A DNA stretch of 64,000 bases from Yuukianura sp. NJ FZ-2021 (GCA_046563655.1 JAJCTO010000011.1:1-64000), one strand, 5' to 3'; positions 3,293 to 52,200 are shown, numbered from the stretch's first letter. Notes: generated by a model from the letters alone, not told the origin. Numbers and translations are program-made.

Positions 3293-3354
3293 TGACACAA
3301 AACGACTTAAATTTGTGAGAGTGTGACACAAAACGACTTAAATTTGTGAGAGTG
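3293..3354 (+). repeat. 31 bp tandem duplication inside one D monomer
   Basis: TGACACAAAACGACTTAAATTTGTGAGAGTG occurs twice, at 3293-3323 and 3324-3354. Confidence 0.93.
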
Positions 3355-45300: not shown

Positions 45301-46490
45301 CAACTATATTTTTGGAATCCTCATAAAAAGTGCTACAGGAACCCACGTTCAGTTGCTGTGTCGTCCCTCATCTCGTGACCCTTTTTTTATGAAAATTTGT
45401 TTCAAAACAAATCAATCGAAAAACCTCCACGCGGAGCGATGCCGGGCGAAAATGAGTTACTTTTCTGAAATCCTGCTGAAAAGTACTACAGGAACCAACG
45501 TTTAATTGGCGTGGATAGATTGCAATTAAATCTGGTTAGAGCGTACTTAAAAGTCTGAATGAAACGCTCAACTTCGGATTTTATCTCGAGTTGGAATACG
45601 GCACCCAGGGCAATGTCGAGCACCATTTTGACACAAAACGACTTAAATTTGTGAGAGTGAACATGCAAATGTGAGAATGAACAGAAAGTAAATTACATTT
45701 TTGAAATCCTCATAAAAAGTGCTACAGGAACCCGCTTTCACTTGCTGTGTCGTCCATCATCTTGTTACCTCTATTTATGAAAATTCATGTTTCAAAACAA
45801 AAAATTCAAAAGAAATGCATTCCGGAACGATGCTGGGTAAAAGTCAACTATACTTTTGAAATCCTCATAAAAAGTGCAACAGGAACCCACTTTCACTTGC
45901 TGTGTCGTCCATCATCTTGTTACCTTTATTTATGAAAATTCATGTTTCAAAACAAAGAATTCAAAAGAAATGCATTCCGGAACGATGCTGGGTAAAAGTC
46001 AACTATATTATTGAAATCCTCATAAAAAGTGCTACAGGAACCCACTTTCACTTGCTGTGTCGTCCATCATCTTGTTACTTTATTTATAAAAATTTATGTT
46101 TCAAAACAAAGAATTCAAAAGAAATGCATTCCGGAACGATGCTGGGTAAAAGTCAACTATACTTTTGAAATCCTCATAAAAAGTGCAACAGGAACCCACT
46201 TTCACTTGCTGTGTCGTCCATCATCTTGTTACCTTTATTTATGAAAATCCATGTTTCAAAACAAAAAATTCAAAAGAAATGCATTCCGGAACGATGCTGG
46301 GTAAAAGTCAACTATACTTTTGAAATCCTCATAAAAAGTGCTACAGGAACCCACGTTCAGTTGCTGTGTCGTCCCTCATCTCGTGACCCTTTTTTTATGA
46401 AAATTTGTTTCAAAACAAATCAATCGAAAAACCTCCACGCGGAGCGATGCCGGGCGAAAATGAGTTACTTTTCTGAAATCCTGCTGAAAA

Positions 46491-46494
46491 GTAC
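46491..46494 (+). other. Left target-site duplication GTAC
   Basis: The empty site in other units is GAAAAGTACTACAGG; here it is GAAAAGTAC[element]GTACTACAGG. Confidence 0.95.
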
Positions 46495-46538
46495 TGTTAG
46501 GTATGTAGGACGGTTAAAGGCTAACGTCATGCCACGGC

Positions 46539-46546
46539 TGACGTCA
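46539..46546. promoter_or_regulatory. CRE/ATF consensus TGACGTCA in the LTR U3 (copy at 49111-49118)
   Basis: Perfect palindromic consensus about 33 bp upstream of the TATA box, with a near match TAACGTCA at 46522-46529. Function is not demonstrated. Confidence 0.6.
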
Positions 46547-46578
46547 CCCAACACCTCTGTAGAGTCTTCACTCACAGG

Positions 46579-46585
46579 TATAAAA
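46579..46585 (+). promoter_or_regulatory. LTR TATA box (copy at 49151-49157)
   Basis: TATAAAA at mid-LTR, in the expected orientation relative to the PBS. Confidence 0.75.
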
Positions 46586-46670
46586 GCACCTAACAATAAA
46601 GACATGGGATCACTCGATCCCAGCCCACTCAACTGAGCTCATCTCTCTTCTCCATTACCAACCGTAACAG

Positions 46671-46688
46671 TGGTAGCAGAGGCAGGTT
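46671..46688 (+). promoter_or_regulatory. Primer binding site complementary to the 3' end of initiator tRNA-Met
   Basis: TGGTAGCAGAGGCAGGTT. TGGTAGCAGAG is the reverse complement of CTCTGCTACCA, the 3' end of metazoan tRNAiMet; plant elements have TGGTATCAGAGC. Confidence 0.9.
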
Positions 46689-47320
46689 GATTCCCCACCT
46701 CTGTTCTCACTATGGAGGGAGCTTGAGCCCCCGCATACCCCATTGCACTGGTGTCCAAGACATTCGCTTCAAAGCGCAGACCCCCATGCACGGCGTTCCT
46801 TCGCATACCAGGGAGGCCCCCAATACCCTTCATCCCCCCCCCACTCCGCAAAGTGCAAGGCCTGTCGACAAGGGTACTGCTCCGTCCACGTAAACCCCTA
46901 GCACACGTATATTCTACAGAAGAATAAGCCCCTCTCCCTAATCGCGTCGTTATTTCACGGTTGACCAGCAAAAATACGCTACTGAAACGACATGTCCAGG
47001 TTTGCATTGATTTCCCTGCCCACAATTTTACAATTATTCCTAATATGAAACTTGTGAATATGCAAGGACCCCGGATTCGCCAACCCGTTAAATCCATAAT
47101 CACACTTTGATAAAGACTGTACTTTTAATTTGTATACAGCAAATATCGCCCACTGCCATCAACCCACTGCACCCCCCCCCCCTCACAGCTCACTCACTAC
47201 CCCACACGCCAATTATTTATATGGGGGATGATGTAAGCCCAACACTTACCCTTATAATGGTGGTTGACTGTAGGCCAAAACACAATTACACAATGGCGTG
47301 ATGTTAGAACAATACAACAA

Positions 47321-47890
47321 CTCATCATGACATCACCCACTGAAGCAAAAGGATATTTTTCATACGTCAGTCACTAGAAACGAACCTTATACTGCTGTCA
47401 CCTACTTAAGAAATTTGGAACGAATTGAAATGAGTTGAATAATATTATGCAGACGTCACAGAATATATTGTGAAGACGTCTTTTACCAAACCCATGAAAA
47501 CTCATCATGACGTCACCAGCTGAAGAAATTAAATATATCGAAGACGTCACTTTATTGAAAAGAAAATATTTTCAAGACATAATTTACTCAGACAGAATAT
47601 TTTGAAGACGTCAGCTCATTCAAGAAAATATATTGAGAAGACGTCTTTCACTAAACCACTGAAAACTCATCATGACGTCACCAGCTGAAGAAACTAAATA
47701 TATCAAAGATGTCACTTTATTGCAAAGAAAATATTGTCAAGACGTCATTCACTTAACACGTGAAAACTTATGGTTACGTCACCGAATGAATCAAACAAGT
47801 ATCTTGAAGACGTCATTTCATTGAAGATAAAAAAAAAATATTGTTACGCTGTCCTATGCGCAAACGGAATGCTTTGCAGCGTCATTTCAA
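47321..47890. repeat. Degenerate ~33-34 bp minisatellite centred on (G)ACGTCA within the retroelement
   Basis: ACGTC cores at 47364, 47453, 47476, 47510, 47544, 47608, 47641, 47675, 47742, 47776 and 47810, with decayed cores in phase at about 47577 and 47709. 47461-47578 is repeated at 47626-47743 (offset 165). Confidence 0.85.
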
Positions 47891-49066
47891 TGAAAACAAA
47901 TTTATAGTAGCCGGGCGCCCGAGTTAAACTTGTCAATATATTAATGTATGGTAGCGCTTCGTACCAAATGTTAATTCAGTTTACTAGACTTTGTATTCAG
48001 TCACGAATAGCCATGGTCAAATCTTATCGAAACTAGCGAGCTCGCAATGCACGTAGTCAGGTGACACAAAACTACAAATTCGAAAGGCGGCCGCCGGGTA
48101 CCCACCACCGAACGTGTTGTTAACTGATAACACACACATTGAACAGCCCACACTATTCAGAATCAATCACGTAGTCCATACCCTTCTGCCCCATGCTGAA
48201 CCATGCCCTAAACCAAACATACCACCACTAACTCCCTCATTCTTTCATTAATCGTTTCAAGAATCTACTTATTCCTGAACTTGATCAAGAATATACCGTT
48301 TTTTTTTCTTCGCGTACTGCCCTGGATATCCCTCTACATTTATTGAGGCACCCAAGCGCAAATGCAAGTTGGTGTCCAATACTGTCTCTTGAATTTACGC
48401 AACTCGTCAGTACACAAGTTAATACTACAAGTCACCAACGCATGCACTGAGTGAGTTTAATGCGTCCCAATACTTCGCTTTAGCTAAGGAGACCCACCCA
48501 AATCCACTTACAAACGCGTCACATGGAAGGCGCTCGTGTCTAATCCACCCAAGCTTCTCAGCACAAACAACGAACTATGCAGCACTCGAATAGGCTGTTC
48601 GGTTTCAAGTCAGTATGCCCCGGAAGATCAGTGGTAAAGGATACGTTTTCTGACAACATACGCGTCACAGTTCTCAATCACCATAATCATAAGTATTATG
48701 CACCTCAAGGACGTAGAACCCGGCCATACCCATTACCGAAAACAACTTTCACAAGATCTGTTACAAAGTCCCAATTTTCTAACTTACGTGTGACCATATA
48801 TTACCCTAATCCAAGCTTTCCAAAGGGAAACACCTAGTTATACGGTTTTGCCTAAATGTTTTGGAAAATTAGTACCCTTTACCGTTGGCTATACTTTCTG
48901 AGTTTACCGAGTATAACTGTTTTGTTATTCTATTACTTAATTGTTTTTCAATGCTTTATTTCAACTTACTTCATTATTCATGATTAGTATTTACTTTCCC
49001 ACTTATTTTGTATACTTTATGTTCCACTAACTACGATCGAGGACGATCTTTTCCATAGTGTAGATG

Positions 49067-49241
49067 TGTTAGGTATGTAGGACGGTTAAAGGCTAACGTC
49101 ATGCCACGGCTGACGTCACCCAACACCTCTGTAGAGTCTTCACTCACAGGTATAAAAGCACCTAACAATAAAGACATGGGATCACTCGATCCCAGCCCAC
49201 TCAACTGAGCTCATCTCTCTTCTCCATTACCAACCGTAACA
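49067..49241 (+). repeat. 3' LTR (175 bp)
   Basis: TGTTAGGTATG...CAACCGTAACA; identical by eye to 46495-46669. Confidence 0.97.
49167..49172 (+). terminator. Polyadenylation signal AATAAA in the 3' LTR (copy at 46595-46600)
   Basis: Canonical hexamer inside the LTR. Confidence 0.65.
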
Positions 49242-49245
49242 GTAC
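49242..49245 (+). other. Right target-site duplication GTAC
   Basis: Directly follows ...TAACA; matches 46491-46494. Confidence 0.95.
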
Positions 49246-52200
49246 TACAGGAACCAAAGTTTAATTGGCGTGGATAGATTGCAATTAAATCTGGTTAGAG
49301 CGTACTTAAAAGTCTGAATGAAACGCTCAACTTCGGATTTTATCTCGGGTTGGAATACGGCACCCAGGGCAATGTCGAGCACCATTTTGACACAAAACGA
49401 CTTAAATTTGTGGGAGTGAACATGCAAATGTGAGAATGAACAGAAAGTAAATTACATTTTTGAAATCCTCATAAAAAGTGCTACAGGAACCCGCTTTCAC
49501 TTGCTGTGTCGTCCATCATCTTGTTACCTCTATTTATGAAAATTCATGTTTCAAAACAAAAAATTCAAAAGAAATGCATTCCGGAACGATGCTGGGTAAA
49601 AGTCAACTATACTTTTGAAATCCTCATAAAAAGTGCTACAGGAACCCACGTTCAGTTGCTGTGTCGTCCCTCATCTCGTGACCCTTTTTTTTATGAAAAT
49701 TTGTTTCAAAACAAATCAATCGAAAAACCTCCACGCGGAGCGATGCCGGGCGAAAATGAGTTACTTTTCTGAAATCCTGCTGAAAAGTACTACAGGAACC
49801 AAAGTTTAATTGGCGTGGATAGATTGCAATTAAATCTGGTTAGAGCGTACTTAAAAGTCTGAATGAAACGCTCAACTTCGGATTTTATCTCGGGTTGGAA
49901 TACGGCACCCAGGGCAATGTCGAGCACCATTTTGACGCAGAACGACTTAAATTTGTGAGATTGAATATGCAAATGTGAGAATGAACAGAAAGTAAATTAC
50001 ATTTTTGAAATCCTCATAAAAAGGGCTACAGGAACCCACTTTCACTTGCTGTGTCGTCCATCATCTTGTTACCTTTATTTATGAAAATTCATGTTTCAAA
50101 ACAAAAAATTCAAAAGAAATGCATTCCGGAACGATGCTGGGTAAAAGTCAACTATACTTTTGAAATCCTCATAAAAAGTGCTACAGGAACCCACTTTCAC
50201 TTGCTGTGTCGTCCATCATCTTGTTACCTTTATTTATGAAAATTCATGTTTCAAAACAAAAAATTCAAAAGAAATGCATTCCGGAACGATGCTGGGTAAA
50301 AGTCAACTATACTTTTGAAATCCTCATAAAAAGTGCTACAGGAACCCACGTTCAGTTGCTGTGTCGTCCCTCATCTCGTGACCCTTTTTTTATGAAAATT
50401 TGTTTCAAAACAAATCAATCGAAAAACCTCCACGCGGAGCGATGCCGGGCGAAAATGAGTTACTTTTCTGAAATCCTGCTGAAAAGTACTACAGGAACCA
50501 ACGTTTAATTGGCGTGGATAGATTGCAATTAAATCTGGTTAGAGCGTACTTAAAAGTCTGAATGAAACGCTCAACTTCGGATTTTATCTCGAGTTGGAAT
50601 ACGGCACCCAGGGCAATGTCGAGCACCATTTTGACACAAAACGACTTAAATTTGTGAGAGTGAACATGCAAATGTGAGAATGAACAGAAAGTAAATTACA
50701 TTTTTGAAATCCTCATAAAAAGTGCTACAGGAACCCGCTTTCACTTGCTGTGTCGTCCATCATCTTGTTACCTCTATTTATGAAAATTCATGTTTCAAAA
50801 CAAAAAATTCAAAAGAAATGCATTCCGGAACGATGCTGGGTAAAAGTCAACTATACTTTTGAAATCCTCATAAAAAGTGCAACAGGAACCCACTTTCACT
50901 TGCTGTGTCGTCCATCATCTTGTTACCTTTATTTATGAAAATTCATGTTTCAAAACAAAAAATTCAAAAGAAATGCATTCCGGAACGATGCTGGGTAAAA
51001 GTCAACTATACTTTTGAAATCCTCATAAAAAGTGCTACAGGAACCCACTTTCACTTGCTGTGTCGTCCATCATCTTGTTACCTTTATTTATGAAAATTCA
51101 TGTTTCAAAACAAAAAATTCAAAAGAAATGCATTCCGGAACGATGCTGGGTAAAAGTCAACTATACTTTTGAAATCCTCATAAAAAGTGCAACAGGAACC
51201 CACTTTCACTTGCTGTGTCGTCCATCATCTTGTTACCTTTATTTATGAAAATTCATGTTTCAAAACAAAAAATTCAAAAGAAATGCATTCCGGAACGATG
51301 CTGGGTAAAAGTCAACTATACTTTTGAAATCCTCATAAAAAGTGCTACAGGAACCCACGTTCAGTTGCTGTGTCGTCCCTCATCTCGTGACCCTTTTTTT
51401 ATGAAAATTTGTTTCAAAACAAATCAATCGAAAAACCTCCACGCGGAGCGATGCCGGGCGAAAATGAGTTACTTTTCTGAAATCCTGCTGAAAAGTACTA
51501 CAGGAACCAACGTTTAATTGGCGTGGATAGATTGCAATTAAATCTGGTTAGAGCGTACTTAAAAGTCTGAATGAAACGCTCAACTTCGGATTTTATCTCG
51601 AGTTGGAATACGGCACCCAGGGCAATGTCGAGCACCATTTTGACACAAAACGACTTAAATTTGTGAGAGTGAACATGCAAATGTGAGAATGAACAGAAAG
51701 TAAATTACATTTTTGAAATCCTCATAAAAAGTGCTACAGGAACCCACTTTCACTTGCTGTGTCGTCCCTTATCTTGTTACCATTATTTATGAAAATTCAT
51801 GTTTCAAAACAAAAAATTCAAAAGAAATGCATTCCGGAACAATGCTGGGTAAAAGTCAACTATATTTTTGGAATCCTCATAAAAAGTGCTACAGGAACCC
51901 ACGTTCAGTTGCTGTGTCGTCCCTCATCTCGTGACCCTTTTTTTATGAAAATTTGTTTCAAAACAAATCAATCGAAAAACCTCCACGCGGAGCGATGCCG
52001 GGCGAAAATGAGTTACTTTTCTGAAATCCTGCTGAAAAGTACTACAGGAACCAACGTTTAATTGGCGTGGATAGATTGCAATTAAATCTGGTTAGAGCGT
52101 ACTTAAAAGTCTGAATGAAACGCTCAACTTCGGATTTTATCTCGAGTTGGAATACGGCACCCAGGGCAATGTCGAGCACCATTTTGACACAAAACGACTT

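Follow-up and report, generated by a model that had tools for sequence, protein, structure and literature searches.

A non-coding LTR retroelement in a composite satellite array of Yuukianura sp. NJ FZ-2021, probably a recent insertion from a non-autonomous family

Overall organization of the element

The window analysed here, a stretch of 64,000 nucleotides from Yuukianura sp. NJ FZ-2021 (GCA_046563655.1, JAJCTO010000011.1:1-64000), consists of satellite repeats except for an LTR retroelement of 2,747 bp at positions 46495-49241. The features of the element and of its immediate borders, all in window coordinates, are as follows.

46491-46494, plus strand: 5' copy of the target-site duplication (TSD), GTAC, which is single in the 82 paralogous empty sites
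46495-46669, plus strand: 5' LTR, 175 bp, TG..CA, with terminal inverted repeat TGTTA/TAACA; 100% identical to 49067-49241
46522-46546, plus strand: two CRE-like motifs, TAACGTCA (46522-46529) and the palindromic TGACGTCA (46539-46546), both within the putative U3
46577-46600, plus strand: TATA box (TATAAA at 46579), with AATAAA 16 nt later at 46595-46600
46605-46622, plus strand: hairpin TGGGATCACTCGATCCCA with a 7-bp stem and a 4-nt loop, candidate short R; found in both the MFE and the centroid fold
46670-49066, plus strand: non-coding interior, 2,397 bp, GC 0.41; no protein signal and no Rfam family
46671-46688, plus strand: primer-binding site (PBS) TGGTAGCAGAGGCAGGTT, 18 nt, one base past the 5' LTR, complementary to the 3' end of initiator tRNA-Met
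47319-47854, plus strand: degenerate tandem repeats with units of ~165 bp, a 31-nt sub-period and same-strand (G)ACGTCA motifs
49035-49066, plus strand: 3' end of the interior, hairpin GATCGAGGACGATC followed by TTTTCCATAGTGTAGATG; eight of the last 12 bases are purines
49067-49241, plus strand: 3' LTR, 175 bp, 100% identical to the 5' LTR
49242-49245, plus strand: 3' copy of the TSD, GTAC

Comparison of 46495-46669 with 49067-49241 reproduced the pair of 175 bp LTRs that the initial annotation had judged identical by eye (100% identity, TG..CA ends and a 5-bp terminal inverted repeat). A repeat finder returned the LTR repeat as 177 nt at 100%, because two additional bases, GT, are common by chance to the PBS spacer and the TSD. 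The TSD was also described correctly as intact, with GTAC on both sides of the element and a single GTAC at the paralogous empty sites, and its length of 4 bp, inside the 4-6 bp range of LTR retrotransposons, holds only if the element terminates in the canonical CA. A 5-bp duplication, AGTAC, is formally possible and was set aside, as it needs an element with an AAC (non-CA) 3' end.

Insertion site within the satellite array

Outside the element, analysis with TRF resolves the satellite into 153-155-bp monomers with higher-order periods. The spacings of a 38-nt junction motif fit 236 + k x 155 bp and the array is therefore composite, with a 236-bp unit separated by variable runs (0-9 copies) of the 153-155-bp monomer. 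The insertion target is a motif common to the 155-bp and the 236-bp satellite units. The layout presumably resembles that of other tandemly arrayed composite repeats, such as the Helentron-associated ones of bivalves. The arrays at 36-63 kb are more uniform (93-97% matches in TRF) than those at 1-19 kb (82-90%), and one 236-bp-type unit contains a perfect 31-bp x 2 tandem duplication at 3293-3354.

In a self-comparison of the whole window by 100-nt tiles taken every 50 nt, the median tile recurred 264 times elsewhere, and tiles that recurred fewer than three times were confined to start positions 46451-49151, in agreement with the initial annotation, which took the element to be the only non-satellite DNA in the 64 kb. 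The empty site, a 38-nt sequence composed of the left flank, one GTAC and the right flank, is found 82 times in the window with at most three mismatches and was not found in any of 100 shuffles. A BLAST comparison using 1.5 kb from each side gave 78 paralogous places at which the left flank directly abuts the right flank. Subtracting 2,751 bp restores an interval of 545 bp between junction motifs, which is among the commonest in the array (seen ten times). The proposed insertion into the satellite junction motif is thus borne out by the uninterrupted motif, with its single GTAC, at 82 places in the same window.

Age of the insertion

Over 1.5 kb, the closest paralogue of the left flank is 99.1% identical and that of the right flank 99.87%, and the element is absent from all paralogues; the insertion therefore post-dates very recent duplications within the array or, at the least, was not copied by them. 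The absence of differences over 175 bp places the LTR divergence below about 1.7% (95%; 3/175), a bound that at plausible mutation rates is compatible with an age of as much as about one to several million years. LTR identity is a weak clock, and the term 'very young' used in the initial annotation is to be read as relative: its recency is upheld by the identical LTRs and by absence from all 78 paralogous sites, whereas absolute youth is only bounded, at <1.7%.

LTR signals, priming site and interior repeats

The two CRE-like motifs of the LTR suggest a link to bZIP/CREB-type factors. The AATAAA lies only 16 nt past the TATA box and should therefore be upstream of the transcription start, which would make it usable only in the 3' LTR. 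The spacing of the TATA box and the AATAAA points to a short R at the hairpin at 46605-46622.

The PBS matches a PBS built for human tRNAMet(i) (PMC1797187) at 16 of 18 positions, the first 12 of them contiguous, the reference being the human tRNA and not that of the host. PMC1797187 prints this PBS as engineered to match human tRNAMet(i), and PMC7744096 shows an iMet primer whose 3' end is the same. The initial annotation had called the PBS intact, and with this match, one base past the 5' LTR, the description stands. We take the two mismatches, at PBS positions 13-14 (CA here, AT in the PBS built for the human tRNA), to fall in the T-stem of the tRNA, where the host's own tRNA could differ. 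The acceptor-stem sequence matched by the PBS is of metazoan type, and on this basis the host is probably an animal. In a predicted RNA fold of 46600-46760, which at z -2.2 is suggestive only, the PBS would pair with the downstream sequence CCTCTGTTCTCACT, a mimic of the tRNA acceptor strand, and would thereby lie in a stem-loop (46669-46710). At the other end of the interior there is only a poor polypurine tract: of the 12 bases that directly precede the 3' LTR, ATAGTGTAGATG, eight are purines, and the nearest pure purine run, GAGGACGA, lies ~20 nt upstream.

The interior contains 11 occurrences of ACGTCA/TGACGT against 1.15 expected from a first-order Markov model, with a maximum of seven in 2000 shuffles; these counts are not independent because most of the motifs lie on the same strand within the tandem repeats.

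Coding capacity

A Pfam search of the 29 stop-to-stop ORFs of at least 40 aa gave no family at or above its curated cut-off, the best match (E = 0.019) reaching 15.5 bits where 27.9 were required. With X in place of stops, the six frames of the whole interior likewise gave no family at or above cut-off (best E = 5.9). The longest interior ORF, of 151 aa, was equalled in length or exceeded in 22 of 500 Markov shuffles. Language-model recognition scores for the two longest ORFs were 1375 and 1013, with no usable matches, on a scale on which 91 in 100 proteins of known families reach 2300. A search of 46000-49800 against Rfam at E values of up to 1 found no hammerhead, 5S, tRNA or other family in the element, one sub-threshold match to a bacterial sRNA falling in the satellite flank, and ARAGORN detected no tRNA-like gene.

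The claim that the interior lacks a retrotransposon ORF is therefore sustained by the 29 ORFs and the six read-through frames, none of which contains a Pfam family. A search with Pfam profiles, of the kind that had been proposed as a check on this claim, gave no gag or pol signal in any of the six frames of the interior. We regard the element as non-autonomous because of this lack of a protein-family signal.

Occurrence in public sequencing runs

Four public runs, from two studies and under two organism labels, share sequence words with the element (word shares of 0.24-0.48); no RNA run was among those listed, which speaks neither for nor against expression. Contigs from all four runs align to 46400-49340, where they cover 25-29 of 30 bins. 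Identity to the interior is roughly 93-100%, with 0-16 letters different per piece among the pieces listed. One 184-nt contig from run X2, spanning the LTR and the PBS, is identical to the window, and a 359-nt piece from run X4, which carries the second organism label, has one difference. Among the contig variants are a 120-bp deletion (48410 to 48531), a 167-bp skip in the tandem block that corresponds to one unit fewer, and small indels. The interior has a contig depth close to that of the LTR or about one half of it, contig depth not being convertible into copy number. Since the same non-coding interior, with substitutions and indel variants, is present in the contigs of all four runs, it represents a multicopy, variable family and not a one-off deletion.

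Further features of the contigs are as follows. In one contig from X2, 255 nt of unlike sequence precede the LTR, which is followed from its fifth base on (window 49071); the contig may derive from a second copy in the genome, flanked by other DNA, or from a relative whose interior differs and which is hence a possible partner. One X4 contig follows the satellite to 46493, almost the same position as the insertion, and then continues for 69 nt in unrelated sequence, which could reflect another insertion at the same motif or a boundary of the array. A joint in X4 that goes back 2572 was considered as a circle or tandem arrangement and rejected, as it is rather what a collapsed LTR gives in a contig.

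Exact-pattern scans found no loci: the LTR end with the adjoining PBS had no match in viral or metagenome contigs, the LTR start none in metagenome contigs, and the satellite core none in viral contigs or in contigs of prokaryote genomes. A full-text literature search with six short stretches of the satellite and the LTR returned no printed description, the repeat catalogues Dfam and Repbase lying outside its scope.

Comparison with known elements

Two definitions of a TRIM are relevant here. PMC4558846 gives TRIMs as <4 kb, typically 0.5-1 kb, and LARDs as >4 kb, and PMC6934838 sets a stricter limit of about 1 kb in total. As a non-autonomous element of 2,747 bp, the present one falls within the <4 kb definition and outside that of a LARD, as worded in PMC4558846; with its interior of 2,397 bp it is too large for a strict TRIM, which in PMC6934838 is under about 1 kb with an interior of a few hundred base pairs. 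The initial annotation had placed it between TRIMs and LARDs in size. This position is retained insofar as the element is neither a strict TRIM nor a LARD, but by the <4 kb limit it counts as a large TRIM and not as a size class of its own.

Among animal TRIMs, ta-TRIM of taeniid cestodes, PbTRIM of the harvester ant and biv-TRIM of bivalves share with this element short LTRs of similar size, TSDs of 4-5 bp, the lack of coding sequence and presumed mobilization in trans (PMC4558846, PMC6934838, PMC3532108). For ta-TRIM an LTR of about 198 bp, TG..CA ends and a tRNA-complementary PBS just past the 5' LTR are described (PMC4558846/PMC6934838), as found here. The differences are in the interior, which is about 0.6 kb or less in animal TRIMs against 2.4 kb here, and in the PBS, which corresponds to initiator tRNA-Met here and to tRNA-Leu in ta-TRIM, biv-TRIM having no recognizable PBS. 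The internal block of tandem repeats is a further difference from the animal TRIMs.

LARDs, which are known from plants, resemble the element in having a long non-coding interior between LTRs and in depending on a partner element. Their LTRs are of kilobase size. At >4 kb in PMC4558846, they contrast with the 2.7 kb and the 175-bp LTRs of the present element.

Initiator tRNA-Met serves as primer for the Copia elements Ty1 and Ty5 and also for the Gypsy element Ty3 (PMC5371799, PMC7197481). The element shares this primer and the TG..CA ends with the Ty1/Copia and Ty3/Gypsy elements so described and differs from them in that gag/pol is absent. Neither the PBS, since tRNAiMet primes both Copia and Gypsy elements, nor the interior, which has no gag/pol, assigns the element to a superfamily, and the Ty3/Gypsy affinity hinted at in the initial annotation is one candidate only. 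Termini of the form TGTT..AACA are, we assume, more typical of Copia. Retrozymes have a similar non-autonomous LTR architecture but differ from this element, which has no hammerhead ribozyme in its terminal repeats; Cassandra and Helenus/Ajax are also non-autonomous LTR elements and carry a 5S rRNA-, tRNA- or snRNA-like sequence in the LTR, whereas no 5S, tRNA or other Rfam family was found in the LTR here.

Alternative interpretations and the probable reading

The element could in principle be a one-off or low-copy derivative of an autonomous Gypsy, Copia or BEL element that arose by internal deletion or recombination. A parent with the same LTRs is possible, and Gag, for which the Pfam models are poor, could have escaped detection. 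However, there is no pol or gag signal in any interior frame, and all four runs hold the same interior, in several variants and at a depth similar to or half of that of the LTR, which fits many copies. We therefore consider a derivative of this kind to be quite unlikely. A chimeric join that put the LTR element within the satellite array during assembly is an extremely improbable explanation. Satellite arrays are prone to assembly error, and support for this particular insertion comes from the assembly only, as none of the contigs listed from the four runs bridges satellite into LTR; the absence of such a contig is not evidence against the insertion, because contigs break at repeats. The insertion is base-exact, in that the 4 bp duplicated here occur once at each of the 82 paralogous sites, the flanks carry on the array in register at the 545-bp interval, and a chimera would not produce a TSD.

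A different reading concerns the origin of part of the interior. The minus-strand ORF at 46642-47124 (161 aa), which runs antisense across the PBS, matched one database protein, and the region 46663-46983 might on this basis be an antisense fragment captured from a host gene for a SEA-domain (mucin-like) protein. The match, to a protein of 3,310 aa with 13 SEA domains, has an E value of 7.4e-8 among 1.84 billion representatives, and at 48.8 bits it stands well above the composition-preserving shuffles, none of 200 exceeding 4.5 bits. Against this, the single match owes its score to a sum over nine near-identical repeats; the best single BLASTP alignment (33 bits, 26/81 identities) is non-significant when rescaled to the size of the library; the ORF has no match to the Pfam SEA family even at a threshold of E = 10; no other SEA protein matched it; its recognition score is low, with no usable match in the protein atlas; and the aligned stretch crosses the PBS. 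Given the summed score and the lack of a Pfam SEA match, we judged this ORF to be a chance match inflated by repeats, and capture of a SEA gene fragment to be very improbable.

It is highly probable that the element is a recently inserted member of a multicopy non-autonomous LTR retrotransposon family that is mobilized in trans. The initial annotation had proposed such a family: its non-autonomous and multicopy character is supported by the lack of a protein signal and by the multicopy interior in the four runs, and mobilization in trans is what we infer for an element of this structure.

Proposed life cycle and implications

Transcription of such an element would be driven by the 5' LTR from its TATA promoter, with the two CRE-like sites upstream. 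The AATAAA, placed between the TATA box and the start predicted near 46605, would take effect only in the 3' LTR, with a poly(A) site predicted near 46610-46630, and R would be very short and may consist of the 18-nt hairpin. The RNA would then be packaged by the Gag/Pol of an autonomous partner that shares the LTR termini and the PBS, and initiator tRNA-Met would prime minus-strand synthesis at the PBS. Integration would follow when the integrase of the partner joins the TG..CA-ended cDNA to the target and duplicates 4 bp; the present copy would have landed in the satellite motif later than the most recent local duplication of this part of the array. The one-directional (G)ACGTCA array of the interior, in which the motif is a CRE half-site or palindrome, mirrors the CRE-like sites of the LTR, and it is conceivable, if unlikely, that the element acts as a mobile enhancer- or insulator-like cassette; the near-identity of parts of the interior under a second organism label would fit a very recent spread, possibly between species.

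By itself, the insertion is an ordinary transposable-element event. The element nevertheless constitutes a dated and unique landmark in an otherwise uniform satellite array and can anchor the validation of its assembly. It also dates the array's last local duplication in relative terms and can be scored as a presence/absence marker. In the range of 1-4 kb, non-autonomous LTR elements give no protein signal and are rarely catalogued in animals; for annotating this family and finding its autonomous partner, a clean full-length copy whose tRNAiMet PBS is intact offers a good starting point.
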